A stretch of DNA of 64,000 nucleotides from a virus. The stretch lies in IMG/VR virus record IMGVR_UViG_3300050821_006672, positions 1 to 64,000 of that record. One strand, 5' to 3'. Numbering within the stretch: the stretch's first letter is position 1; each line of letters opens with the position of its first letter. The notes under the pieces are model-generated. The model had not been told where the DNA came from. It made no database searches and saw nothing but the letters and a program-made list of their open reading frames with translations. A program made the translations under genes and the position numbers. Positions 4,023 through 22,645 of this stretch are shown in pieces.

Positions 4023-4340
4023 TCATTTTTTGCTCACTCTGTACTTTCCATAACTGTCGTGTATCAACACGCCTCTTCGTGTTAGGTACCCCACTGCATT
4101 ATATATCGCTTTTGTTGGGGCATCTGGGTAGCTTTTCAGTAATTCTTCTATAGTAAGTTCCTCTCGTCCACTGAGGAAGCGAATTACAGAGTGCGCCGCA
4201 GTACCGAAGCGCTTGCCTGCAACGAATGGTGGCAAGGAATCACTCAACTCGCCGACAAGTTGATATCGGGATGTCATTGACAAAGTACGAACTAGGGTTC
4301 GTATCAAAATCATAGTTTCCCGATCTTGCTGCTGGTCCAC
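4023..4340 (-). CDS. winged-helix-like hypothetical protein
   Basis: C-terminal AIYNAVGYLTRRGVLIHDSYGKYRV. Confidence 0.5.
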   Translation of the reverse strand: MDQQQDRETMILIRTLVRTLSMTSRYQLVGELSDSLPPFVAGKRFGTAAHSVIRFLSGREELTIEELLKSYPDAPTKAIYNAVGYLTRRGVLIHDSYGKYRVSKK

Positions 4341-4342
4341 GC

Positions 4343-4693
4343 TTACTTTCTCACCTCCGTAGGCTTGAGTCCCTTTCTCAAGGGGACTCCCGCTTGTTGG
4401 CAGATAACCCAGACTGTTTTGCGATCAACGCCATGGTCGTCGCAAATATCTTTGATTTTTCTACCGCTCCTATATTCAATCTCGACTGCCTTCCTTGTTT
4501 CTGGCGAGTTCCCCGGCCGTCTCTTTTTGCATCCCATATGTCTTGCAATTCTTGAGATACCTCCAATGCTCATCTCATACTTTGCGGCGATCGCATTGGT
4601 TGGCAGTCCTGCGTTGTAGTCTCGCAGGATAGCGACGTTTCTTGTCCATCTGCGCTCATAGTCGCGCTGGATCGAAAGATAGCTACTTTTCAT
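4343..4693 (-). CDS. tandem helix-turn-helix protein
   Basis: Two repeats: DYNAGLPTNAIAAKYEMS and EYRSGRKIKDICDDHGVDRKTV. Confidence 0.65.
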   Translation of the reverse strand: MKSSYLSIQRDYERRWTRNVAILRDYNAGLPTNAIAAKYEMSIGGISRIARHMGCKKRRPGNSPETRKAVEIEYRSGRKIKDICDDHGVDRKTVWVICQQAGVPLRKGLKPTEVRK

Positions 4694-10615: not shown

Positions 10616-11623
10616 CTACCTACGCCGTTTGGTTTTGCTGGGGCGTTCTTCTTCCTCATCATCTTCGAATGGAGGTTCTTCTTCATCTTCGTCTACGCGG
10701 CTTTTCGCGCGAGTTGTGGGCTTCTTCTTGGCTGGACGTTCATCCTCTTCTTCAACATCTTCCTCAGGCTCGTCATCCTCGTCGCGCCGACTTCGTGAGC
10801 GTTTCGGACGTTCATCTTCCTCTTCATCTTCGTCGCGTGCAGGACGTTTACGTGGCGTATTTTCCTCGTCAGCATCCTTGGTCTCGTCGGTCTCGTCGAG
10901 TTCTTCGTCCTTGTCTTCGGTAGCGCCGGTGACGACCTGTTTCAGATGCTCATAGGAGTAGAACTTGAGTTGGTCCGGGATGGGATTCTCCGTAATGAAC
11001 TCCCGGATATCCTCCAGTTTCTTGTCGTCGTCGATCAGGGGAGACGACTCGTGGTCGATCTGGAAACCGAAGTACTTGGTCTTGATGTCAGCGCCCTTCC
11101 GGGTGAAAGAGACATCATACCCTTCGTAGGGATGATCGATGAAAAGGATTTTGCCTGTGCGTTTGTTCTTGCACAGTGCCGCGATATCGCGATCGACCGT
11201 CCACGACATCGAGTATATCTGTGGGTCGGGATCGCGGTCGCCGCGATCAAGAATCCAGCAGATGAAACGCTTAGTGGGAGAGAGCTGTTTCGCGTCATCC
11301 TCTTCGCCAGCGCGTTTTGCTTCCAGTTGCGCTTCGCAGATTGGGCACGGCTTCTTCTTCATCTTGTTCAGACAAAGATAACTGCTGTTGTCGGCGCCGA
11401 CGCGGTTGTGGATGAAAATCTCGTAGCCGTAATGACGGTGATCATCCCAGGTTGGTTCGAGAAACCTGATGGTATTCTCCCCCTGCTTTGGGGACCAGGT
11501 ATCGACGTTCTGCTTGAAGATCGAGTCGAAATTGCCGCCTGACTGATTGGCGTGTTCGTCCACGTCTTTCTCGGAACGTGGAACGTATTTTCTCACGTTG
11601 GACTTTGAACTACTCTTGGCCAT
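10616..11623 (-). CDS. gp32-like single-stranded DNA-binding protein
   Basis: NTIRFL, CLNK..CPIC, EGYD motifs; long acidic tail. Confidence 0.75.
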   Translation of the reverse strand: MAKSSSKSNVRKYVPRSEKDVDEHANQSGGNFDSIFKQNVDTWSPKQGENTIRFLEPTWDDHRHYGYEIFIHNRVGADNSSYLCLNKMKKKPCPICEAQLEAKRAGEEDDAKQLSPTKRFICWILDRGDRDPDPQIYSMSWTVDRDIAALCKNKRTGKILFIDHPYEGYDVSFTRKGADIKTKYFGFQIDHESSPLIDDDKKLEDIREFITENPIPDQLKFYSYEHLKQVVTGATEDKDEELDETDETKDADEENTPRKRPARDEDEEEDERPKRSRSRRDEDDEPEEDVEEEDERPAKKKPTTRAKSRVDEDEEEPPFEDDEEEERPSKTKRRR

Positions 11624-11797: not shown

Positions 11798-12301
11798 TTA
11801 CCTCTGTCTGCGCAATCGGTCCATCTCGCGGCGATTATTTTCGGCATCATGTTCTTTCATACGCGATGTCGAGCTATCCAGGTTGGCGCCAAAATACCCG
11901 GCAACGTAGAGGTCACACATGGCCTTCAGCATGTAGCTGCGTTGCATGAATGCTTCTTTGAGCGCTTGCCACTGTCCGACCTGCTTGTTGAGTTCCAGGA
12001 GTCTGTCGGTGGCTTTGATGACATCCTTGTCCCGACGCTTGTCGCTCTCGATCTGACGTTCTGTTGTCTTAGTATCCGTGACTTCGGCATCGTGACGGAG
12101 TTGCGCGTCAATACGCGCCTCGATCTCTTTCTTCTCTTGGTCGGCAGCATCGCGTTGAGAGATCAGTAGCGTGAGTTGTTTAGTTACGCGGTAAAACAGA
12201 TCAGGATGGATCACGAGCTCATCATCCAATGAGTTCTCGTCGATATGTAATCCTTTTTCCAGGTCTGCGATACTAGGTGTTGTGATTGATCTGATGGTCA
12301 T
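11798..12301 (-). CDS. UvsY-like recombination mediator
   Basis: Helical protein (LHIDENSLDDEL...EAFMQRSYML) next to SSB and RecA. Confidence 0.55.
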   Translation of the reverse strand: MTIRSITTPSIADLEKGLHIDENSLDDELVIHPDLFYRVTKQLTLLISQRDAADQEKKEIEARIDAQLRHDAEVTDTKTTERQIESDKRRDKDVIKATDRLLELNKQVGQWQALKEAFMQRSYMLKAMCDLYVAGYFGANLDSSTSRMKEHDAENNRREMDRLRRQR

Positions 12302-12615
12302 TTCTGCTCCCCTTGTATCTCGATGCAGTCAAACTCAACAATTTCCATGTCTTCCTTCTTCCGGTGATGCTGCTTTTCAGGGACGGCCCAAGTCCCCTCA
12401 TCTGTACCTTCATAGTTAATATGAGTTTCGTTCTTGAAAATCCCTTGTAGCCAGTTGGACAGGAAGGCCCGCGCTGCCTGCTTGTTGTGGAAGATGCGTG
12501 GCTCGCGTTCGTTAGAGGGTTCCAGCCAAGAGCCGCCGCGTCGCTTACCTGTTTCCAGGCGCGGGATGAATAGGCCCGTTGATTTCTGGCGGACGGCATA
12601 GACTTTCATTATCAC
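12298..12615 (-). CDS. hypothetical protein
   Basis: Coupled ORF. Confidence 0.55.
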   Translation of the reverse strand: MIMKVYAVRQKSTGLFIPRLETGKRRGGSWLEPSNEREPRIFHNKQAARAFLSNWLQGIFKNETHINYEGTDEGTWAVPEKQHHRKKEDMEIVEFDCIEIQGEQK

Positions 12616-14600
12616 CCTTCCGTAAACAGTACTCGTCCGATTGCGGTAATCAATGGTGCCAGCTTATCAGACTGATTGAAGGGCTGTGAGAATGCATCAA
12701 GAATTCCCAACGCATGACAGGCGGCACGATCGGTCTTCGCTCCTTTGGCAACGCTCGCCATGTAGTTAGCCACCACAATGCGGATTGACTCTGGGTTTTC
12801 GCCATCGAGTTGTTCGAGTAGTCCCATTGCCTTCATCCATGATCCCCCCTTGACCAGGAAGCGGCAGAGTTCGATCATGGCATCGGACTGAGAAGCAGTG
12901 TGGAGTAGTTCGCTGGCTTCTTTACGAGACCTGGCGTTTCGACACAACTCGAGGTTGACAAGGAGTTGGCGTGGCGAGCCACGGGCTTCCTTGATGATGG
13001 TATCGCCGACATCTCCAGGGAGTTCCAGGTCCTCAGCTTCGGCAACTTTGTCATACAATTTGCCAAGGTCGGTATTGGGAACATCACGCAGAGTGTAGCT
13101 GGCAGCACGGGTCTTGATTGTATCTGGCACTTTCGATGGTTCGGTTGTGCAGAAGAACCAAAAAGCATGTTCCGGGGGTTTCTCAGTGATCTTCAATAGT
13201 GACTGCCATGCATTTTTCGATAAACTGTGACAGTTGTGTACAATAACATTGGCGACGCTAAATGATGGGTGCTCTTTTATTTCTAAGTCATAGAACTCAA
13301 ATAGCGCTTCACCGTCCAGACTACCGCACGGGAATTGCCCGATATTTGTGAGTTCTTGAAGCGAAGGATGGTCCACCCCAATGACTGTAGTCGCTCGTCC
13401 TTGAGCTTGTCTATTTGGCGTTGTTGTCGAGAGTTGTGTGTTCCACCATCCACCTCGATACCCAATCGCTGCTTCGGAAAACCGATGTCGATTTTGTAAC
13501 AGGATGGCCATCCCTTTAGCCTTCGACCATGCCCAAACGTAACAACATGTTCCAACTGCCCACCAACTAAGGAGTGTAGTAACGTTTGTTCCCGAGTTGG
13601 TCCCTTGCCATTCCCACCGCGTTCGCCTGTCCATATGTGAAGCGTGCCATTGGTATCTTTCACGCGTAGCATCTTTTCTACTGTCGCTTGATTGCGCATT
13701 GGGTTGTTGTGACGCATTCGAATACTGCATCGTTTGGCAATGCCAGCCCACATCTCTGGTTTTTTGTGTTTGCTTCGAAGCACTCCCGCACGTTGATTGT
13801 TTTTTCTTTGCTGGGAGTGAGATCGTCCAACTCGTTTCAAACCACCAAGTTTGGCTCCGCATTTTCGTGAACACGTAGTTACAGGGGATGTTGGCCGCGC
13901 TCGAAAGTATTCTCCACAAATTACGCATTTTCTCTTCAAGCACTCTGGACAGAATATTGATCCACTTTTTTTGCTCGTATACCGGGTCCCACATTGACGA
14001 CAAGTGTTGTGGTATATTGGAGGCGTTAGTGGGTAACCTTTTGGCATGTAAATCCCTCGCGTTGATCCAACCGCCAAATGTCAGAAATGGATGTTCTTGC
14101 GAGGAGATTATATGATGCCCGCTTTCCAGGCGCAATCTAACAATGTGTGATAAAGGAACTAGTCGTTTGCTCACTGATGCGACAGTTTGCTCGCCGTGAG
14201 CGCCTAGTACTTTGTCTCCTGACAGGAGCTGTTCAATGGGAACATCCCCGTTAGGAGTGTTTACTAAGGTGCCTTTAACAAAGCATTCGTCCAAGATGAC
14301 GGCGCGTTTCGTTCCCTGCCCGAATGGTTTGTAACGAAGCATCTCCTGGATTGAGCGCATATCGTCAACGCCAGTACGAGATGCGGCGTCAATCTCGGTG
14401 ATGTTGGCATCGAGACATCCTGCTGTTCGCGCAGATATCCTTGCCAAAGTCGTCTTTCCACATCCCGATGGCCCACAGAAAAGGAAGGTTTGCGCTCCCC
14501 CTCTTAAGATAATGGCTTTCAATGATTTGATAATAGTTGTATGACCAATGACCTCATCAAAGGTTCTAGGTCGATACTTGTCGTGCAGTACCTCTGTCAT
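12612..14600 (-). CDS. dnaX: DnaX-like clamp loader ATPase, intein-containing
   Basis: LHDKYRPRTFDEVIG, GPSGCGKTT, EIDAAS, ILDE|C, LLKITEKPP; ATG 14600 overlaps the upstream stop. Confidence 0.9.
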   Translation of the reverse strand: MTEVLHDKYRPRTFDEVIGHTTIIKSLKAIILRGGAQTFLFCGPSGCGKTTLARISARTAGCLDANITEIDAASRTGVDDMRSIQEMLRYKPFGQGTKRAVILDECFVKGTLVNTPNGDVPIEQLLSGDKVLGAHGEQTVASVSKRLVPLSHIVRLRLESGHHIISSQEHPFLTFGGWINARDLHAKRLPTNASNIPQHLSSMWDPVYEQKKWINILSRVLEEKMRNLWRILSSAANIPCNYVFTKMRSQTWWFETSWTISLPAKKKQSTCGSASKQTQKTRDVGWHCQTMQYSNASQQPNAQSSDSRKDATRERYQWHASHMDRRTRWEWQGTNSGTNVTTLLSWWAVGTCCYVWAWSKAKGMAILLQNRHRFSEAAIGYRGGWWNTQLSTTTPNRQAQGRATTVIGVDHPSLQELTNIGQFPCGSLDGEALFEFYDLEIKEHPSFSVANVIVHNCHSLSKNAWQSLLKITEKPPEHAFWFFCTTEPSKVPDTIKTRAASYTLRDVPNTDLGKLYDKVAEAEDLELPGDVGDTIIKEARGSPRQLLVNLELCRNARSRKEASELLHTASQSDAMIELCRFLVKGGSWMKAMGLLEQLDGENPESIRIVVANYMASVAKGAKTDRAACHALGILDAFSQPFNQSDKLAPLITAIGRVLFTEG
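13233..14285 (-). mobile_element. intein (351 aa) in DnaX, directly after Walker B
   Basis: Starts CFVKGTLVNTPNG (block A), SSQEHPF (B), FYDLEI (F), ends VHN followed by Cys; splicing restores ILDECHSLS. Confidence 0.92.
13283..14047 (-). CDS. DUF559/Vsr-like endonuclease with zinc fingers, overprinted in the +1 frame inside the DnaX intein
   Basis: CRQC, CPEC, CVIC, CSRKC; YKIDIG...IEVDGGTH...DKLKDERLQSLGWTILRF; GAGGGA RBS before ATG 14047. Confidence 0.85.
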   Translation of the reverse strand: MPKGYPLTPPIYHNTCRQCGTRYTSKKSGSIFCPECLKRKCVICGEYFRARPTSPVTTCSRKCGAKLGGLKRVGRSHSQQRKNNQRAGVLRSKHKKPEMWAGIAKRCSIRMRHNNPMRNQATVEKMLRVKDTNGTLHIWTGERGGNGKGPTREQTLLHSLVGGQLEHVVTFGHGRRLKGWPSCYKIDIGFPKQRLGIEVDGGTHNSRQQRQIDKLKDERLQSLGWTILRFKNSQISGNSRAVVWTVKRYLSSMT

Positions 14601-15019
14601 TTCTTTTCCCATGGAAATACTAGCCAAGTATCTTGTTCGACTTTTACAGAGAATGTATCAATGAATTGTGTTTCCGTAGGTTTTGCGTACACCACTGCAT
14701 AATGAGCAGTAAGCACTTTTTGTACGCTTTCTATCGTTTTTCCTGTACTAATAGTGTCATCAACTACTAATACGGGACTAGGCATGAGACGGGGAAACTT
14801 GGTGATGTGAAGAAGACTGCCTCGTTGTTTGTTTTCGTCGTAGCTTTCTATGCATAGGGTTTCAATCATACGAATGTTGAGTTCGTGTGCAATTATTGTG
14901 GCTGGAACCAAGCCCCCTCGGGATACTGCAATAATTGATGCGAAGCCCCGTGGCAGTTGTTTGATGAGTGCTCTGGTGTCCTGATGAAATCGTTCCCAGG
15001 TGATGTTGATGGTATTCAT
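14597..15019 (-). CDS. gpt: xanthine/guanine phosphoribosyltransferase-like
   Basis: AVSRGGLVP, PRPP loop VVDDTISTGKT, C-terminal WLVFPWE. Confidence 0.85.
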   Translation of the reverse strand: MNTINITWERFHQDTRALIKQLPRGFASIIAVSRGGLVPATIIAHELNIRMIETLCIESYDENKQRGSLLHITKFPRLMPSPVLVVDDTISTGKTIESVQKVLTAHYAVVYAKPTETQFIDTFSVKVEQDTWLVFPWEKK

Positions 15020-18000
15020 GATCGCTTATGTCCCCAAATTTCTACGGAACTGAACTTGCCAATCTCGGTCAGGTCACACCAGTTTTCTCCAACTGAGACT
15101 TCCACCCCTAGAGGAACATTTACCCATGGGAACTCTACGCGGGTCATCTCACGTACTACAATTTCCAAGTTCTTGTCGATTTCGTGCTTGGGCCAGATGA
15201 AAGTCAAATCATCATGTATCTCCATATTGGCTTGGAAACGTAATTGTTCATATTCGGACAATCGCGCCATAGCAGAACATACAATTTTCGATTCAAGTGC
15301 TTGGATAGGGCTGTTGATTCTTTGGTTAGGTGAGATTGGTGCACGACGCCTGAAACCGGACAGTCCCGTGATGTACCCTAGTTTGTAGTACATCTTTTCT
15401 AAGTCGTCATGCCACTTTTTGATATCAGGAAACTTACTCCAGAATGTCTCTTGTAGTTTGACGCCGATGTGTTTCGGAACACCCAACCCTCCCGATACAT
15501 TTTCTGCCTGCGCGCCGAAGAACGAGGGAAATACGAACTTGTTCTTCGACTCCTGCCGGAGTTCCTTTGCAAGTTCCTTGTCTTTGAGTGATTTTCCACG
15601 CAACCATTGCGGATACATTTTGGCGAGCCGATACATCCAGTCCGAATGAATGTCATAGTTGTTCCAGAATGCATCTACCAAAGCTTTATCACATGACTCC
15701 ATAGCAACATTACGTGCTTGAATACCTGAGAAATCAACTGTGACAACACGCAAATCCCCTCCCGGCTTAACCTGCTTTCGCAACTTACGGTTAGGCCCAT
15801 GCTTTACTATGTTTTGGCTATTAGGATCATTACTACTCGTTCGCCACGTGCGAGTACTATGCGTGCTAATGTGAGGATGAACGCAGCCATCCGAGTATAA
15901 AGTATCCGAGCCCTTCTTGAAGGGAAGTATATACGTGGAATGCATCTTGTTGGCTTCGCGCCAATCCAAGACCAAGTTTACAAAAGGATGTTTGATCTGT
16001 TTGAGTTCGTTTTCATCCACGCTCTCGACGGGATGATTGAGTATCTTCTCAATGACGAACTTGACATCCTGATTGGCTGATGGTCGAAATTCTGTCTTTT
16101 TTATCCGAGCAAACTTCTTTACGACGTCGAGTTGTGTCAGGTCTTTCTCTATCTTGCTACGACGTTGCGTAAATTCCTTGTCAAACTCGTTAACGACATC
16201 CTGGTTTGCTGGAATGCCTTTCAATTGGGTGAGAACCATCGTTGGGATGCGCCGCAACTGATGCTCGTACACACCCATCAAATCTTCGTCACGCAGACGT
16301 TTACGCTGTGGGAAGTACAAGTAGCGATGGGCTTTGCTATCGAGTGCGTTGTAACGTAGGACTTGGTCTAATGGTTCCTTGTCCAGGTTGTTCTTATCGA
16401 GCTTCCCAAACAACGCTTTTACGTCCAGCCCAAAGTACTGGATGCAAAGGAACTCGAGGCTGTGGCATCCGGGGTTGCCTCCCATACGTTCATCCAGGAT
16501 GTAGGCTTGTGAAAGCGTGTCTTCCCAGGGTTGGGCGCGGAGTACCTTCCTGCCATAGAAATATGCTGACCACTCCATTTCAAAGGAGAGTGAATGTACC
16601 ACCTTCTTACAAGGAGCGGTCAGGAGAAACTCTAGCAGAGTATCTTCTACGCGTTCGATCTGACGATCAGACCAGTCACATTCTGGATGATACAAGGGAA
16701 ATGATGCGGCAACCTCATATCCCGCCATTGCCACTGTGAGTATTTTTGAGGTCTTCTTGTATGGGCGTAATCCTTTTGTTTCGTAGTCATAGCCGACGAT
16801 CTTTTCGTTATGCATCGCCTTGATGAACTTGATTGCGGCATCGGGATTTGTAATGATCTCTACGTCACGTGAGAGGTCCTCGACGGTGAAAACCTTGGGT
16901 TCGGGGAGTTTGTCAACGATGGCAAATGCATTACGCAGATCATTAGCAAATGCGAACTCGATGTCCGAGCCATAGCTGTTTTTATCCCTTGGCTCAAACT
17001 TGCGGGACCGTCCTACGTAGGACGGATGCATCATGGGGAAGAACCAGCAAATGTGATTCCCTACCTTGATGGGAACATGTCTGCCATTCCACTTGGTAAT
17101 GCCTTGCTGCTTGAGCGCCCATTGAAGGGGCACGTTTCCAAAACCGAAGATTGCTTTTGGCTTTGTCTTTTCTACGTCGGACGTAATTGATGGACGGCAG
17201 CACTCCACTTCTACCTGGGTAGGTTCACGGTTCTTGGGTGGTCGAGTGTTGCTTACGACATGATTTTCCGCTACATACCAACCTTCGTCGGTTTCTAAGT
17301 TGTATATAAATCCTTCAAAGGGTTGGGTATCAATATGAATGACATTGTCAAACTGTATAAGAGTGGGGTTAGTTTGTGTCAACTTGAAGAGCAACTCGGA
17401 ACCTCCAAGTTCTTGATTAAGAAAATCCTCCTTTCTAATGGGGTGCGAATGCGTACCCATAGAGAGTCCAGAAATATTGAAGCGGCTAAGCCCTTGTGGA
17501 GACCTCCATCCGTTAAGGAAGTCTGTGATAGGTACGTCGCCGGTGAAAGCACGGAAGAACTCGCTAAAATTTATCATGTCCGCCCGCGTACTGTAAGTAG
17601 TTTTCTCAAACGGAACGGTATTAAAATCAGAAATGTTAGTGAACAGCTGCGTGTTTGGGCAAAGCGAAATCCCAGTGTTATCGATAGGAAACGTCGCTTC
17701 GGTCAGGGTATTAGATTGGGGGCCAATCTCAGAGAGGTTTGTACTCGCGAGGCACGTGCTAGAAGACTTCAACAAACACTTTCTGTTGCCTCTGATATTG
17801 AGCTGCTGTTGATTCCCGAACTTAAGCGGAGAAGCATTCGATTTATCAGACAGTACCCAGTTGGGACTTACAACCTCGACTTCGCCTGTTCCAATATCGC
17901 CGTGGAAATTGAAGTTAGTGTCAACCATCCGTTGGCTATGCCCCACAAGAGATTGCGCTGCAAAAAGCTCATCGAGGCGGGATGGTTTGTTTTGTTCGTG

Positions 18001-18537
18001 TGGATAAATTCCTCCCATCCATTGGTTCCTGCTACCGTAGTTAACTATTTGATCTCCAAGAGAAAGTTGATACGCGAAAAGCCATCCTTGGGATGTAAGT
18101 ATTGGGTGGTGCGGGGTACAGGGGAGTTCGTCTCCAAAACGCGTCTTGACTATTATAAGCTCACCCACGAAGTAGCGGCGGAATAACTTCTTTATTCTGG
18201 ACGGTGTTGTTACTTTTACTGAACCAGGAAAGCAGCGCACTACATTGGTCCATCGAATCTTATCATTCCATTTCTCAGGAATGCGAAAGCGTAGTATCTG
18301 GCCCGTCTTCCCGACAAACTGCTTTCCTTGCTCGTCTTCCGAGGCCCCAGGGGCTTCCCCAATTACTAAAATTGTAGGATGATCGGAACCAGTTGGCTCC
18401 ATGTGTGGATGTTTTAGCCCGCGCTGATGGTTGAGCGGACAGACCGCGCAGCCATGGCGATGAAGGAAATCTACAGATAGGTTTTTGGGAACCAGTGATT
18501 CATTGTTGCGAGCTGGGGACGTTGGAAGGAAACCCAT
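15016..18537 (-). CDS. family A DNA polymerase with N-terminal family-4-like uracil-DNA glycosylase domain, 3'-5' exonuclease and intein
   Basis: CAVC, GEAPG, FVGKTG, HPSY (UDG); YDYET, YNALD (exonuclease); RTSSNDPNSQN, DFSGIQAR, RQESK, IHDD (polymerase). Confidence 0.9.
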   Translation of the reverse strand: MGFLPTSPARNNESLVPKNLSVDFLHRHGCAVCPLNHQRGLKHPHMEPTGSDHPTILVIGEAPGASEDEQGKQFVGKTGQILRFRIPEKWNDKIRWTNVVRCFPGSVKVTTPSRIKKLFRRYFVGELIIVKTRFGDELPCTPHHPILTSQGWLFAYQLSLGDQIVNYGSRNQWMGGIYPHEQNKPSRLDELFAAQSLVGHSQRMVDTNFNFHGDIGTGEVEVVSPNWVLSDKSNASPLKFGNQQQLNIRGNRKCLLKSSSTCLASTNLSEIGPQSNTLTEATFPIDNTGISLCPNTQLFTNISDFNTVPFEKTTYSTRADMINFSEFFRAFTGDVPITDFLNGWRSPQGLSRFNISGLSMGTHSHPIRKEDFLNQELGGSELLFKLTQTNPTLIQFDNVIHIDTQPFEGFIYNLETDEGWYVAENHVVSNTRPPKNREPTQVEVECCRPSITSDVEKTKPKAIFGFGNVPLQWALKQQGITKWNGRHVPIKVGNHICWFFPMMHPSYVGRSRKFEPRDKNSYGSDIEFAFANDLRNAFAIVDKLPEPKVFTVEDLSRDVEIITNPDAAIKFIKAMHNEKIVGYDYETKGLRPYKKTSKILTVAMAGYEVAASFPLYHPECDWSDRQIERVEDTLLEFLLTAPCKKVVHSLSFEMEWSAYFYGRKVLRAQPWEDTLSQAYILDERMGGNPGCHSLEFLCIQYFGLDVKALFGKLDKNNLDKEPLDQVLRYNALDSKAHRYLYFPQRKRLRDEDLMGVYEHQLRRIPTMVLTQLKGIPANQDVVNEFDKEFTQRRSKIEKDLTQLDVVKKFARIKKTEFRPSANQDVKFVIEKILNHPVESVDENELKQIKHPFVNLVLDWREANKMHSTYILPFKKGSDTLYSDGCVHPHISTHSTRTWRTSSNDPNSQNIVKHGPNRKLRKQVKPGGDLRVVTVDFSGIQARNVAMESCDKALVDAFWNNYDIHSDWMYRLAKMYPQWLRGKSLKDKELAKELRQESKNKFVFPSFFGAQAENVSGGLGVPKHIGVKLQETFWSKFPDIKKWHDDLEKMYYKLGYITGLSGFRRRAPISPNQRINSPIQALESKIVCSAMARLSEYEQLRFQANMEIHDDLTFIWPKHEIDKNLEIVVREMTRVEFPWVNVPLGVEVSVGENWCDLTEIGKFSSVEIWGHKRS
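17248..18234 (-). mobile_element. intein (329 aa) in the UDG domain of the polymerase
   Basis: Starts CFPGSVKV, CTPHHPILTSQGW (B), FIYNLET (F), ends VVSN followed by Thr; splicing restores TNVVR-TRPPKNREP. Confidence 0.88.
17335..18186 (+). CDS. HTH-repeat plus DUF559/Vsr-like endonuclease encoded antisense inside the polymerase intein
   Basis: Two HTH repeats (LYKSGVSLCQL, RYVAGESTEELAKIYHV); SDIE...RQYPVGTYNLDFA...IAVEIE...LIEAGWFVLFVW. Confidence 0.8.
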   Translation: MNDIVKLYKSGVSLCQLEEQLGTSKFLIKKILLSNGVRMRTHRESRNIEAAKPLWRPPSVKEVCDRYVAGESTEELAKIYHVRPRTVSSFLKRNGIKIRNVSEQLRVWAKRNPSVIDRKRRFGQGIRLGANLREVCTREARARRLQQTLSVASDIELLLIPELKRRSIRFIRQYPVGTYNLDFACSNIAVEIEVSVNHPLAMPHKRLRCKKLIEAGWFVLFVWINSSHPLVPATVVNYLISKRKLIREKPSLGCKYWVVRGTGEFVSKTRLDYYKLTHEVAAE

Positions 18538-18635
18538 ACAAGCCCCGAAATCTCATTGTAGAAACGCCAGAGCCGCTCGTAGAAACGCTTTTCGGCAGAA
18601 ACCATGGGTTACCATAGGAGACAAATCAAACATTG

Positions 18636-19682
18636 CTATGCCATTGCTGCGACCATGTAGATCGCTCCGCGCGCATTCGTCAGGATCATACATTTGTTTG
18701 TAATGAGCATCTTGGTGTAGGTGTCGAGGCCGGATTTGATATGACGGCAGTCAATCTTGAGTGATACGTCGGGATGATCCTCTTTGAGTTTCATCGAGTC
18801 CATCATTTCACCACGCAATTGTGAGTTCGTTTCCATCCTGAGACGACCATCCCCAATCGTAATCGTCGTATAGTTCTTTTCTGAAGCTACATCAGCGATG
18901 ATGATTGCGCGCTCGATCATTTCCTTGAGACGTACAGGAATAACGATCGCGGACTTCTTGATATCCTGCGGGACATTGTGGTTGACGATCTTATGGAACT
19001 CGATGGGTCTATCGGTTTCGATCAGTTTCCCGAACAGGGTGACGTTACCTGAGGTGAGCAGACTGTACTCGTCATTGATCTCGATCTTGCTTGCTCCTGA
19101 CTTGGCAATCTTGACGGCCTGCTTGCAGAACTCTGTCGACAGCGTCACGCGGTTCTTGATGGGAGGTACGCTGGTCAGATTGAGTGGCACGTAGGTCAAT
19201 GTCAAATCGTTGGTCCCGAACATCGCCAGGAACTTTTCGGTGCGGACCAGGGTCACACCAAGTTGCTCGGGTTTTGATGGATCGGTTCCTGCCGATTGTA
19301 GGCATAGTTCGAGTCCTTCGAAAAACGTATCGGGGAAATTGGTAGTATCCTTCGCCGGCTTGGGCATCTCGAAGATGAAGGACGACGCAGGCATCGTGGG
19401 GAATGCTATGTTTACCCCACCTGCTTTTAGACGTAGATTGTTCTCGTCTTGGGTGAGATTGACCTCCTCGGCACGAAGCGTCTTGACCAGACTGGTAAAC
19501 GTGTTCCCCTGGATCGCGCATTCGAAATCTGTCTTGAGGCGTGTAGAAACCGCAATGGCATCGTTGTAAGCCATTATGCCGGCCCCAGTGAACCAGATGT
19601 GGTTCAGGATGGGAATAATGTCGTGATTGGCAAGGGCTGGACTGACGAGATCGACGCAATCGACTAAGTCTGTTCGGCGCAT
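18636..19682 (-). CDS. dnaN: DNA polymerase sliding clamp (beta subunit-like)
   Basis: 348 aa; VSPALANHDIIPILNHI N-terminus; next to polymerase and clamp loader. Confidence 0.75.
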   Translation of the reverse strand: MRRTDLVDCVDLVSPALANHDIIPILNHIWFTGAGIMAYNDAIAVSTRLKTDFECAIQGNTFTSLVKTLRAEEVNLTQDENNLRLKAGGVNIAFPTMPASSFIFEMPKPAKDTTNFPDTFFEGLELCLQSAGTDPSKPEQLGVTLVRTEKFLAMFGTNDLTLTYVPLNLTSVPPIKNRVTLSTEFCKQAVKIAKSGASKIEINDEYSLLTSGNVTLFGKLIETDRPIEFHKIVNHNVPQDIKKSAIVIPVRLKEMIERAIIIADVASEKNYTTITIGDGRLRMETNSQLRGEMMDSMKLKEDHPDVSLKIDCRHIKSGLDTYTKMLITNKCMILTNARGAIYMVAAMA

Positions 19683-20719
19683 AATTCAATTTCCTTCATG
19701 TGCTCGACAAAATCATGATAGCGTCGAATGACATAACTCTCGTTATTCCAATCATACACACTACGCCGCATTTTGCATTGAACCAATCCTGATGTCATAT
19801 ACTTTTCGAACCGCTCTTGTTTGGTCTCGCGGAGTTCAAAGTAAGACAACAATCTAAAATTTGCGCCACGTCGTGTCAGCGAAATGTTCTGCGGGTTAGT
19901 TTTTATCATGGTGGCAAATACTACGTTGAAATCATCTGTTTTACGCGTTTCCCGAACGTGTTTTTGTAGTCCTTGATAGTAGATGATGTTTAGGTCTTGT
20001 CGTGTGTGTGGCGTGTTGCATACGCTCTCAATGGGGAGGTCGAGTTGATCTCGGACGTACTTATTGAGTGAATGCCTGAGTCCCGCGTCAAGTCCGAGCA
20101 TCCCATAAGAAATGCCGGAGGCAGTTGTTATGCGTGGTGAAAAACGTACTGAGGTTGGGCGTGAGAAATCTGGTTCTTTGTTTCCCAACGCGGGGATGTA
20201 AACCTGCCCAAAGCCTCCTTTGAGTGCCCAACTCGTTGAGTCCACAGTTGTCCAGGGATAACGCAAAAGTAGGTTGGGTCCAGTTGCGCCGAACCCGTGT
20301 GTTTTGATTGGTTTCTTCCCCTGACGTTTTGCCAGTATTCCGAAGCAGCGATCCAGCCAGCGATGAAGCTCGTTGGGATGGGAGCGTAAGTAGGGGGAAA
20401 TCCCAATGTAGGATTCTTTGTCATCGATCAGGCGTTCGAGCCAATCAAAGTTTTCTCCCTGATGAAACACGGGGATGGGATTCAACCCTTTGTCTTTAAT
20501 GCGCTGTAGATTCTCGTAGGAAAGGCGTGCGGAGCGTTCGACAGATTCGTGGGTCCGGATGAGCTTTCCCTTTGATCCAGGGATAACGTCCATGTTGACG
20601 TAGGCAAAGATCAACTCCTTGTTGCGTTTGATGAACTCGACGTATTCGTCGATGCTGATGGAAATGTCACGACGCCACGCCGAAAATGCGCCGCTGTCCA
20701 AAAGGAGAGTAATCATCAA
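19664..20719 (-). CDS. TGT-fold DpdA-like deazaguanine DNA transglycosylase
   Basis: LLDSGAFS, MDVIPG, PVFHQGE, THGFG, VDSTSW; next to folE, queC and queD. Confidence 0.7.
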   Translation of the reverse strand: MMITLLLDSGAFSAWRRDISISIDEYVEFIKRNKELIFAYVNMDVIPGSKGKLIRTHESVERSARLSYENLQRIKDKGLNPIPVFHQGENFDWLERLIDDKESYIGISPYLRSHPNELHRWLDRCFGILAKRQGKKPIKTHGFGATGPNLLLRYPWTTVDSTSWALKGGFGQVYIPALGNKEPDFSRPTSVRFSPRITTASGISYGMLGLDAGLRHSLNKYVRDQLDLPIESVCNTPHTRQDLNIIYYQGLQKHVRETRKTDDFNVVFATMIKTNPQNISLTRRGANFRLLSYFELRETKQERFEKYMTSGLVQCKMRRSVYDWNNESYVIRRYHDFVEHMKEIELCAEQT

Positions 20720-21291
20720 TCACCATTGGAACTGTTGACCAGCGCCATGAATTCAGCGCGGCATTCCGGCTCATCTTTTATACAGCCTCGCAAAGCAGAC
20801 GTCGTCGTCGTAGTGCCTTGGCGTTGGACGCCCCTTGATTCGAGGCAAAGATGTCGAGCACGGATTACAACGCCAACGCCTCTTGGCGTGAGTTCTGCAT
20901 TTAGGGCGTTAGCAATTTGTGTACAAAGACGTTCTTGAACAGTCAAGCGCCGCGCAAAAATGTCAACTACACGGCTCAGTTTGGATAGGCCCACAATCTT
21001 ACGGCCACGAGGAATGTAACCAATACACGCAGTACCAAAGATTGGCGTCATGTGGTGACAGCAATGCGAGTAAATTGGTATTCCTGCTTGGAAGATCAGT
21101 TCGTCAACAGGAGTTTCCTCCTCGAACAACTTGATTACATCCTCAACATTCTGTTGGTAGCCGGACATCCAGAAACGCCAGGCACGTATGACGCGCGCCG
21201 GCGTTTCTCGAAGCCCCTCACGGTCGACATCTTCACCCAGGCGCGAGAGGAGTTCTTTAATCAACTCTTCGTCAGTAACGTGGGTGAGCAT
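20716..21291 (-). CDS. folE: GTP cyclohydrolase I
   Basis: REGLRETPARV, SHCCHH, GLSKLSR, QERL, HLCLESRGV. Confidence 0.95.
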   Translation of the reverse strand: MLTHVTDEELIKELLSRLGEDVDREGLRETPARVIRAWRFWMSGYQQNVEDVIKLFEEETPVDELIFQAGIPIYSHCCHHMTPIFGTACIGYIPRGRKIVGLSKLSRVVDIFARRLTVQERLCTQIANALNAELTPRGVGVVIRARHLCLESRGVQRQGTTTTTSALRGCIKDEPECRAEFMALVNSSNGD

Positions 21292-21301
21292 GGGTTTCCC
21301 C

Positions 21302-21943
21302 TTACAGTTCGATCTCGAGAAGACCTGCGTCGACCAGGGCCTTCATGGTGTCACGCGTATCGGCGCGCATCGAACCGATGGTCATTTCGGTCCCCTTGTA
21401 ACCCTCGTCCTTGAGTTTGGACATCAGGTCTTCGACGCTGATACTGGGCTTCTTGATGACGATCTGCTTGAGGCGGCGGCGCATCGAAAGTGGCTTCTTC
21501 TCGCCACTGCCGTTCTTCTTTGAAGCCGCCGTCTTCTTCGCGGCAGGCTTATCAGCAGCCTTCTTTGCCGGTGTCTTCTTGGTGGCAGCGATTTTCTTCG
21601 TCTTTGTCTCCATTACCTCTTCTTCTCCTGGTTCATCGTTGGTATCATCTTCGGGTTCTTCTTCCCCACGTTCGTCTTCCCCGTCTTCGACTACTCCGTC
21701 ATCTTCGTCGGGGAAAGGAGGTACGTCATCGGCACTCAACTCGAGAATTTCGCCGTCGGCATGTTTCTTGCCGGCCTCGATTACCGAGTTGTAGAACTCT
21801 TGGGCTTCGGTGCTTAGACTTTCCCAGCCCTCCTCATCAAGCGTTTCCGCCTTGCTGATCAGTCTCTTGATCAGGTCGGCGTCGACCTCGTTCTTTTTGG
21901 GCTTTACGCCCGTCGCTTCGAGTAGCATTTCACGGATTGACAT
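21302..21943 (-). CDS. protein with acidic and Lys/Ala-rich (histone H1-like) tracts
   Basis: DE-rich middle region, KKTPAKKAADKPAAKK, small C-terminal domain. Confidence 0.6.
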   Translation of the reverse strand: MSIREMLLEATGVKPKKNEVDADLIKRLISKAETLDEEGWESLSTEAQEFYNSVIEAGKKHADGEILELSADDVPPFPDEDDGVVEDGEDERGEEEPEDDTNDEPGEEEVMETKTKKIAATKKTPAKKAADKPAAKKTAASKKNGSGEKKPLSMRRRLKQIVIKKPSISVEDLMSKLKDEGYKGTEMTIGSMRADTRDTMKALVDAGLLEIEL

Positions 21944-21958
21944 GTAGCATTGTCCCCG

Positions 21959-22645
21959 TCAGTTTGCATAGCCTGTCGGATCGGACACGCCTGCTTTGGC
22001 GAATCCCTCTTTACGAGCACGGCATGTGGGACAAGCGCCACAGTGCTGCTCTCCCCCGGCGTAACAGGACCACGTTAATGACCAGTCTACACCGAGTTCT
22101 TCACCAAGTTTGATAATGTCGTGTTTAGCCAACCACTCTAACGGTGTGGCCAGACGAATCGTGTGATAGGTGCCGATGTAGATGGCGTTTGCCATCGCGC
22201 CAATCCACTCCGGCGTGCAATCGGCGTAGGCCCAATTTTGGGCATCCTCGGCATGGGCACCAAAGTAGATTGTCCATTCCGTTCCTTGTTGCAGCTCAGC
22301 TTTTACGTAATCGCCGACCACTGTGGATGTAATGGCTGAAAGAATTAAGCCGTTTCGAAATGGAACGTAGGTTGGGGAGATGCCCTTGATATCGTTGTAG
22401 GACATATTGGGAATTTTTACGTTTGGGTCAGTCAGCATGGTTGGTGGAATAATTGACGAAAGGTCTCGTACCCGATGGGGAATGTCAAGGGCTTGGCAAG
22501 TCATTTTCGCGTGTTTGATCTCTTTCTTATGGCGCTGCCCGTAATCAATACTGATTGCTTCTATGGGTTCGTGGCGTGTGTGTGCCAAATATAAACACGT
22601 CGTACTGTCAATCCCTCCGCTGAGGAGGACGTAGGCTTTTGACAT
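21959..22645 (-). CDS. queC: 7-cyano-7-deazaguanine synthase
   Basis: LSGGIDS, YGQRH, YVPFRN, YADC, SCY..CGACPTC. Confidence 0.95.
   Translation of the reverse strand: MSKAYVLLSGGIDSTTCLYLAHTRHEPIEAISIDYGQRHKKEIKHAKMTCQALDIPHRVRDLSSIIPPTMLTDPNVKIPNMSYNDIKGISPTYVPFRNGLILSAITSTVVGDYVKAELQQGTEWTIYFGAHAEDAQNWAYADCTPEWIGAMANAIYIGTYHTIRLATPLEWLAKHDIIKLGEELGVDWSLTWSCYAGGEQHCGACPTCRARKEGFAKAGVSDPTGYAN

Follow-up and report, generated by a model that had tools for sequence, protein, structure and literature searches.

A viral polymerase intein with a predicted Vsr-like homing endonuclease gene in register on the opposite strand

Results

The UDG-PolA intein and the reading frame opposite it

We examined the first 64 kb (the window) of the IMG/VR virus record IMGVR_UViG_3300050821_006672, which is 109,475 bp long and has direct terminal repeats. 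A minus-strand gene in this window encodes a fusion of UDG and family A DNA polymerase (UDG-PolA) that is interrupted by an intein, and an open reading frame (ORF) on the plus strand runs antisense to that intein (Table 1). The precursor consists, in order, of a family-4 UDG domain, the intein, a 3'-5' exonuclease and a family A DNA polymerase. It is matched by the Pfam families DNA_pol_A (E=1.2e-44), UDG (E=1.1e-19) and DNA_pol_A_exo1 (E=2.8e-13), and by NCBIfam and PHROG profiles as well. The UDG domain is split by the intein: Pfam UDG aligns to residues 49-129 and TIGR00758 to residues 428-513, which leaves a gap in the UDG profile at 129-428.

Table 1. Coordinates of the UDG-PolA gene, its intein and the antisense gene in the window
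Feature	Position	Strand	Remarks
UDG-PolA host gene	15016..18537	minus	precursor of 1173 aa, 844 aa once spliced
Intein	17248..18234	minus	329 aa, precursor residues 102-430
Hint N-terminal lobe	18028..18234	minus	intein residues 1-69, blocks A and B; sense frame better conserved
Intein middle	17362..18027	minus	intein residues 70-291; sense frame open yet unconserved; linker
Hint C-terminal lobe	17248..17361	minus	last 38 residues, blocks F and G; from column scores and Hint profiles
Antisense homing-endonuclease gene (predicted)	17335..18186	plus	283 aa from ATG 17335 (alternative TTG 17323); codon-registered with the intein
Mirror of block F (sense GFIYNLE)	17293..17313	plus	ancestral GGAGG and ATG site; holds TATAAAT
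Two helix-turn-helix modules	17335..17613	plus	residues 1-34 and 60-93; HTH_58, HTH_28; helices of the AF2 model at pLDDT >90
Vsr/DUF559-like nuclease domain	17782..18141	plus	residues 150-269; from VIA-align; N180, D182 and E191 at 17872-17907
C-terminal beta-hairpin of the nuclease (KYWVVRGTGEF...)	18097..18141	plus	codon-for-codon complement of block B (..LPCTPHHPI..)

The intein begins with Cys1 (Cys102 of the precursor), directly after TNVVR, and ends in VVSN, so that its last residue, Asn329 (Asn430), is followed by TRPP with Thr431 at the +1 position. Its block B reads T-P-H-H, in which Thr40 and His43 (precursor T141 and H144) form the Thr-x-x-His pair. An N-terminal Cys, a block B Thr-x-x-His and a terminal Asn followed by Thr are the hallmarks of a class 1 Hint domain, and all of them are present. 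PHROG 15127 matches the sense translation across residues 97-432 (E=1.3e-33), and both curated intein models score below threshold (PF14890, 22.9 bits with a cut-off of 35.8; TIGR01445, 19.4 with a cut-off of 24.5). Because the polymerase is essential and the frame is open, the intein probably splices out of the UDG-PolA precursor.

The first-pass annotation of this DNA, which was made from the sequence alone, described an intein with no in-frame nuclease and a long plus-strand ORF that ends at 18186 and covers nearly the whole intein, block B included. These coordinates hold. In profile searches the sense translation of the intein matched no nuclease family, and the plus-strand frame is open for 295 codons (17299-18186, stop TAA at 18184-18186; candidate starts TTG 17323 and ATG 17335), opposite intein residues 17-312. 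The antisense codons occupy the same triplets as the sense codons, in exact register, and therefore one frame can acquire a stop only where the other has TTA, CTA or TCA. Of these codons the polymerase gene contains 32, none of which lies between residues 118 and 414.

No other antisense run of this kind in the window is as long. About 0.13 would be expected by chance among long ORFs, and by length alone the run is only modestly unlikely. Its content, as judged from the DUF559 and helix-turn-helix (HTH) matches described below and from the avoidance of the forbidden codons, is not a product of chance. In the polymerase exteins, TTA, CTA and TCA account for 21% of Leu codons and 30% of Ser codons, and none of the three occurs among the 30 Leu and 21 Ser codons of the antisense ORF (p ~5e-7 for complete avoidance). 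Since TTA, CTA and TCA all have synonyms, the arrangement has no amino-acid cost for either protein in the intein middle. Elsewhere in the window, a gene with a long Glu/Asp-rich tail (10616-11623, minus) has an in-register antisense run that is open for 247 codons. We rejected it as a second antisense gene, as the open run is a composition effect of the acidic tail.

The antisense product is predicted to be an HTH and Vsr-like nuclease

Pfam DUF559 (PF04480) matches the antisense ORF with 29.7 bits (cut-off 20.6, E=6e-7), and several Pfam HTH families, among them HTH_58 and HTH_28, match its first 110 residues. A profile of the nuclease family matches two solved structures, the HTH-repeat protein 2lvs (E=1.1e-9) and the DUF559 protein 3hrl (E=1.1e-6). 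When the homologues in a 48-sequence alignment (A1) were searched individually, REase_MTES_1575 matched 20 of the 48, and HTH families matched many.

We then relied on an AlphaFold2 (AF2) model of the antisense product, which was built on A1 and has a mean predicted local distance difference test score (pLDDT) of 89.7. It contains two HTH units of three helices each, one long helix and an alpha/beta domain (residues 150-269). A model made without an alignment had a pLDDT of 44 in the nuclease part and was discarded. Foldseek with the whole model gave E ~1e-2 at best, and the match was resolved by VIA-align. The top structures were Vsr (1cw0, Z 10.8, root-mean-square deviation 2.7 over 110 residues, model residues 150-269; 1vsr, Z 10.4), the catalytic domain of I-Bth0305I (3r3p, Z 10.3) and the DUF559 protein 3hrl (Z 10.2). 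Further down were mitoribosomal chains (Z 9.1 and 9.0) and other PD-(D/E)xK nucleases (Z ~7 or less). The two HTH repeats and the PD-(D/E)xK, DUF559-like domain that had been read from the letters are thus borne out by Pfam, by the profile and by the AF2 and VIA-align comparison alike.

Four positions are invariant in A1: Gly70, Asn180, Asp182 and Glu191. Of these, D182 and E191 match the aligned D and E residues in 3hrl, and the metal-binding Asp and the acidic residue of the next strand that are expected of this superfamily are therefore both found.

Relatives of the antisense gene

We asked how widespread this arrangement is. A tblastn search of 50,697 phage records with the antisense ORF matched 104 of them at 23-27% identity, including phages of Gordonia, Salmonella, Klebsiella, Pseudomonas, Vibrio and Haemophilus; the best GenBank matches include Vivi2 gp14 (E=5e-24). 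We opened 12 of the GenBank loci (L001-L012). In every one the homologue runs antisense to a head-morphogenesis gene of the MuF-like kind, shares its codon register and is open for 272-371 codons. None of the 12 records annotates the nuclease gene, and the intein is annotated only in phage Snoke; the host genes are sometimes misnamed, as "NAD+--asparagine ADP-ribosyltransferase" or "capsid maturation protease". An exhaustive HMMER search over 1.84 billion representatives returned 2221 representative clusters at E<=1e-3, of which 670 also passed E<=1e-10; many of the matches are full length (220-300 aa). Other searches returned little: a word-indexed protein search with the antisense ORF gave a single weak match, a single-protein scan of viral contigs gave none, and megablast of positions 12000-22000 of the window against phages gave none.

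A scan of IMG/VR with A1 yielded 469 confirmed loci, of which 80 were kept for analysis, the sample being drawn with a pattern that mirrors block B. In all 80, the minus frame that shares the codon register has no stop along the match and lies inside an ORF of 421-1551 codons. Stops in the antisense frame of homologous inteins had been named beforehand as evidence that would speak against a gene. Instead, the open frame is kept in 92/92 related loci (12 from GenBank and 80 from IMG/VR). Lineage-specific Hint profiles that we built match the enclosing ORF at the N lobe in 80/80 loci and at the C lobe in 79/80, and they match all 80 relatives at E<1e-18, as compared with 4.8e-7 for an unrelated DnaX intein. 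The host proteins are of two kinds, one with a MuF domain (alone or fused to a portal protein) and one with a family-4 UDG domain (alone or fused to PolA). In L013, the nearest relative, the host is again UDG-PolA, the nuclease is 44% identical and the site is NNVVR↓C...VVSN↓TRP, as in the window (arrows mark the junctions or the insertion point). In two further relatives (L015 and L056) the insertion site is the motif NVVK↓CRPP.

No free-standing member of the nuclease family was found among 110 nuclease-bearing homologues or the 50,697 phage records, a result that rests on motif-free searches, as the block-B-patterned IMG/VR sample alone cannot show it. A search with the nuclease core only found 26 phage records, all with the match in capsid-related genes and none free-standing.

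Some relatives have unusual host proteins. One UDG-PolA precursor from IMG/VR (L014:1089-5741, minus; 1551 codons) has two inteins, one at residues ~97-408, matched by a general intein profile, and the antisense-nuclease intein at 464-778. Two other host ORFs of this intein family are large fusions (L049:2244-4973, minus; L024:3354-7724, minus); in one, a Zeta-toxin-like kinase domain follows the intein, and the other joins portal and NUDIX domains to a C-terminal, intein-bearing part. Within the window, the HTH part of the nuclease profile also has two weak matches at 4334-4690 (minus; E=5e-5 and 3e-4), one of which contains an internal TAA. These could stem from an unrelated HTH protein or a remnant.

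Selection on the two strands

We next compared how well each reading of the intein is conserved. For the intein middle of eight divergent loci, BLASTP scored the antisense translations at 31-119 bits and the sense translations at 14-46, with the antisense score higher in all 28 pairs. Column scores placed sense conservation only at intein residues 1-65 and 293-329 and antisense conservation at about 85-292. In the Hint N lobe the sense scores were 1.1-3.3, as compared with -0.2 to 0.9 for the antisense frame, and the sense scores of the intein middle were about 0 or negative. The alignment used for the column scores was guided by the antisense protein, and the independent BLAST comparison is the fairer test.

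Substitutions between close pairs follow the same division. Sense codon position 1 is antisense position 3, and it is mostly there that the intein middle varies, whereas the exteins and Hint lobes vary at sense position 3. Substitutions at sense positions 1/2/3 numbered 102/10/20 in the intein middle of the Salmonella/E. coli group and 140/30/83 in that of the Gordonia group; the counts were 7/4/84 in the exteins of one typical close pair and 13/2/46 in the Hint N lobe of the Gordonia group. Among the 125 differing codons in the intein middle of the Salmonella/E. coli group, 100 were synonymous when read antisense, as against 17 when read sense. Judged by these substitutions, purifying selection in the intein middle acts on the antisense frame.

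Three independent lines, namely the fold and family matches, the open frame kept among relatives and the substitution pattern, thus show that the antisense ORF is a genuine, selected gene for a predicted HTH and Vsr/DUF559-like nuclease of the PD-(D/E)xK superfamily.

Overlap with the splicing blocks

The antisense gene also reaches into the conserved splicing blocks. At its 3' end, the family motif Y(R/W)V(I/V)RGxGE of the C-terminal hairpin mirrors TP(N/H)HP(I/V) of block B. A strict pattern for the hairpin motif matches 93/110 nuclease-bearing homologues, and nearly all of the other 17 have close variants. As far as the conserved motifs tell, this overlap is true double coding.

At the 5' end, the ancestral start of the family lies within the complement of block F. 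In 53/77 distinct ORFs an ATG or GTG stands at the mirror of the block F (HVYNL) His codon, and 51/77 have a Shine-Dalgarno-like tetramer 5-18 nt upstream, most commonly GGAGG or GAGG. The typical ancestral start region in relatives reads GGAGGTTGTAAAC followed by ATG. The conserved ribosome site and start codon in relatives argue that the antisense ORF is translated as a gene of its own. A -10-like box, TATAAAT near 17305, had been noted at this place. The string is indeed there (17305-17311), and the promoter role proposed for it is not supported: no sigma-70 site was called at this spot, and relatives carry a ribosome-binding site and start codon, not a promoter, along this stretch.

Homing and history

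To follow the history of the nuclease, we made a quick maximum-likelihood tree (IQ-TREE) of its non-overlapping part. The window copy groups with L013 (SH-aLRT 94), and both fall within a five-member UDG-PolA clade (99). On this tree the labels for insertion site change 6 times, versus a mean of 14.4 when shuffled, and the low number of changes indicates that nuclease lineages follow insertion targets. Among four phages with inteins in MuF genes, E. coli phage Snoke and Salmonella phages TU03, ZCSE7 and LPSE1 (L002, L010, L011 and L012), the intein is 2.5-4.6% diverged as compared with 8-28% for the exteins, which suggests that the intein-nuclease unit was recently transferred among Guernseyvirinae phages. 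A homing nuclease, as the first-pass annotation had proposed, fits both the site-specific clustering of lineages and this low intein divergence, and homing would be the natural reading of the role of the antisense product.

We also looked for an intein-less allele that would define the target. No close one was found, the only candidates being distant polymerases. An IMG/VR match (L096) was set aside because its sequence ends at the contig end, and the PolA of Vibrio phage SSP002 (31.5% identity, 884 aa, no intein) is without the CRPP motif.

Discussion

We consider it very probable that this locus is a mobile intein of the kind listed as "VSR -1 ORF" in a recent preprint (bioRxiv 10.1101/2025.01.02.630785), in which one DNA segment encodes two proteins on opposite strands. 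The minus strand would encode a class 1 Hint domain that excises itself from the UDG-PolA precursor, with the intein middle serving as a stop-free linker. From the same triplets, the plus strand would encode a free-standing homing endonuclease with two HTH modules and a Vsr/DUF559-like domain, which would be transcribed and translated independently and, in the case of the window copy, would have to start at ATG 17335 or TTG 17323. This nuclease would cut the DNA that encodes the intein-less UDG motif (NVV(K/R)↓CRPP) in a co-infecting phage. Recombinational repair would then copy the intein and the nuclease gene as one, and protein splicing would conceal the insertion from the polymerase.

Several observations weigh against this reading. 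In the window copy the ancestral ATG has become AAA (17308-17310), the ribosome site has become TTCTAAG, and an in-frame TAA stands at 17296-17298. The remaining ATG at 17335, which is 8 or 9 codons beyond the ancestral start and still before the first HTH helix, has only a weak ribosome-site match upstream, and a promoter/terminator scan called no sigma-70-type promoter or terminator around the antisense ORF. Because the ancestral ribosome site and start have been lost, the present activity of the window nuclease is less certain than its identity. Between the window and L013, the intein and nuclease are 43-46% identical and the exteins 37-51%; with divergence so similar, there is no sign of recent homing for the window copy. 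The lack of a close empty allele to define the target also counts against the main reading. As for the proteins themselves, the penultimate residue of the intein is Ser, where His is usual; the other UDG-site relatives have Ser as well. The third position of the (D/E)xK triad varies across the nuclease family, so that the catalytic chemistry is less certain, and of the EDxHD motif only E156 and D182 are conserved in A1; the His position is His, Asn or shifted, and the final Asp is not conserved.

The alternative that draws most on these points is that the antisense gene, although real in the family at large, survives in this virus only as a relic, silent or in decay, within an intein that is inherited vertically and whose antisense frame is open for lack of time. 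The lost start signals with a TAA just upstream and the lack of a called promoter are what a relic would show, and similar divergence of intein and exteins from L013 is what vertical descent predicts. We nevertheless find a relic unlikely. All 283 codons are open, the window copy retains every one of the family's 4 invariant and 12 nearly invariant positions, TTA, CTA and TCA are still wholly avoided, and ATG 17335 preserves the entire first HTH; the authors of the preprint, moreover, argue that unused antisense ORFs should quickly acquire stops (10.1101/2025.01.02.630785). A change of role is a different matter: the antisense product or transcript could have been co-opted for something other than homing, as a DNA-binding regulator or as antisense RNA that controls the polymerase. 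It is true that two HTH modules dominate the N-terminal half of the protein, that an antisense transcript would overlap the polymerase mRNA and that the classical third catalytic position is variable. Yet the nuclease domain is kept, with the Asn-x-Asp and Glu invariant family-wide, nuclease lineages track insertion sites, and the contrast between intein and extein divergence in the Salmonella and E. coli phages is a signature of horizontal spread. We therefore regard co-option as very improbable.

One could also suppose that the conserved entity is a domain of the intein in the sense frame, and that its complement only seems conserved. Shared second codon positions do pass some conservation to an in-register antisense frame, and PHROG 15127 does cover the whole sense intein. 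However, this mirror effect is already contradicted by the higher antisense conservation in every pair, by substitutions that are synonymous in the antisense frame rather than the sense frame, by sense column scores near 0 in the intein middle, and by the matches to outside families and a solved fold, which only the antisense translation gives. We accord it next to no probability.

Returning to the mobile intein with two coding strands, we can ask how old the partnership is. The start signals complement block F (HVYNL(E/Q)), the last hairpin complements block B (TPNHP) and no free-standing member was found, which is why the nuclease family may be an ancient and obligate module of two strands that has evolved together with a single Hint lineage, rather than a chance invader of mini-inteins. 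On the same proposal the module would have shifted between targets of at least two kinds, the NCRC motif of MuF and the CRPP motif of UDG. We see the case for this proposal as evenly balanced.

If these readings are right, long and stable opposite-strand double coding would be a working design for a selfish element and not an oddity of a few actinophages, and the nuclease family would be far commoner than the printed label "rare" suggests. Antisense nuclease genes escape annotation pipelines that admit a single gene per locus, and such pipelines may class these inteins as degenerate or as mini-inteins. The family would also support the notion that splicing domain and endonuclease are separate partners, whose partnership may become fixed at the nucleotide level. 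It would further offer many compact HTH and Vsr-like enzymes whose targets can be guessed, each being the empty host site.

Comparison with known systems

Canonical large inteins such as PI-SceI have an in-frame LAGLIDADG or HNH domain within the same polypeptide. In both cases intein and site-specific nuclease would form one homing unit; in the window, by contrast, the nuclease would be a separate protein from the opposite strand. Opposite-strand endonuclease genes within a contiguous intein have precedents in two inteins, that of Synechocystis DnaX and one from Chloroflexus (Gorbalenya 1998; Gogarten 2002, as cited in 10.1101/2025.01.02.630785), where the fold, as described there, is LAGLIDADG, unlike that predicted here.

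Vsr-like homing endonucleases were first described alongside split inteins, in "fractured genes" that have a free-standing Vsr-like endonuclease gene between the two halves of a split intein, for the most part in replication genes of phages (Dassa et al. 2009, PMC2677866). Fractured genes and the window share a Vsr-like endonuclease as an intein-associated gene of its own, but in the former the nuclease gene is on the same strand and splits the host gene, whereas here it is on the complementary strand and the host frame is intact. The prototype of the EDxHD homing endonucleases, the biochemically characterised I-Bth0305I (Taylor et al. 2011, PMC3239194; PDB 3r3p), likewise has an N-terminal HTH-type region followed by a C-terminal Vsr-like catalytic domain; it differs in being encoded in a group I intron and in having the His and final Asp that are unconserved in the window family.

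The window has a second intein, in a DnaX-like clamp-loader gene (12612-14627, minus; Hint_2 and Intein_splicing matches at residues 115-228). In the middle of that intein is an ORF in another frame of the same strand (13283-14077, minus; 264 aa), which has a zinc-ribbon-like N-terminus and matches DUF559 (E=1e-10) and MTES_1575 (E=1.5e-8); BLASTP found no similarity between it and the antisense nuclease (E=2.7). The out-of-frame case among the examples described in the preprint is EndoVII-like, and none of those examples appears to be an out-of-frame Vsr/DUF559 case (10.1101/2025.01.02.630785).

The closest parallel is in that preprint, by Gosselin, Arsenault and Gogarten, whose October 2025 version describes actinophage inteins with the endonuclease antisense or in another frame (10.1101/2025.01.02.630785). 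The novelty that the first-pass annotation had implied is therefore not sustained: the layout is of a recently described kind, and there is nothing new in principle. The preprint's "anti-sense VSR-like HEN" has a model that matches 1CW0 with Z 10.6 over residues 144-267, equivalent to our Z 10.8 over residues 150-269. Its table lists "VSR -1 ORF" inteins in the MuF-like minor capsid proteins Vivi2 gp14, Angelicage gp15, Affeca gp15, Fosterous gp12 and Malisha gp5, and these are the best GenBank matches of the window ORF. They resemble the window intein in nuclease family, strand, -1 frame, open sense frame and a sense middle in which no structure is recognisable. The host differs, as the VSR cases tabulated there are all in minor capsid genes, whereas the window has a UDG-PolA fusion in a 109-kb virus that is not an actinophage. 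Where the preprint, in the parts considered here, calls the layout rare and places the second ORF typically outside the splicing domain, the ORF in the window and in all relatives extends over block B and begins within block F, and the family numbers in the thousands. Relative to those parts of the preprint, what our analysis adds is a target in UDG-PolA, an occurrence well beyond the actinophages, the extent of the family (2221 clusters), the strict codon register in 92/92 loci, and the placement of start signals and C-terminal hairpin within the complements of blocks F and B.

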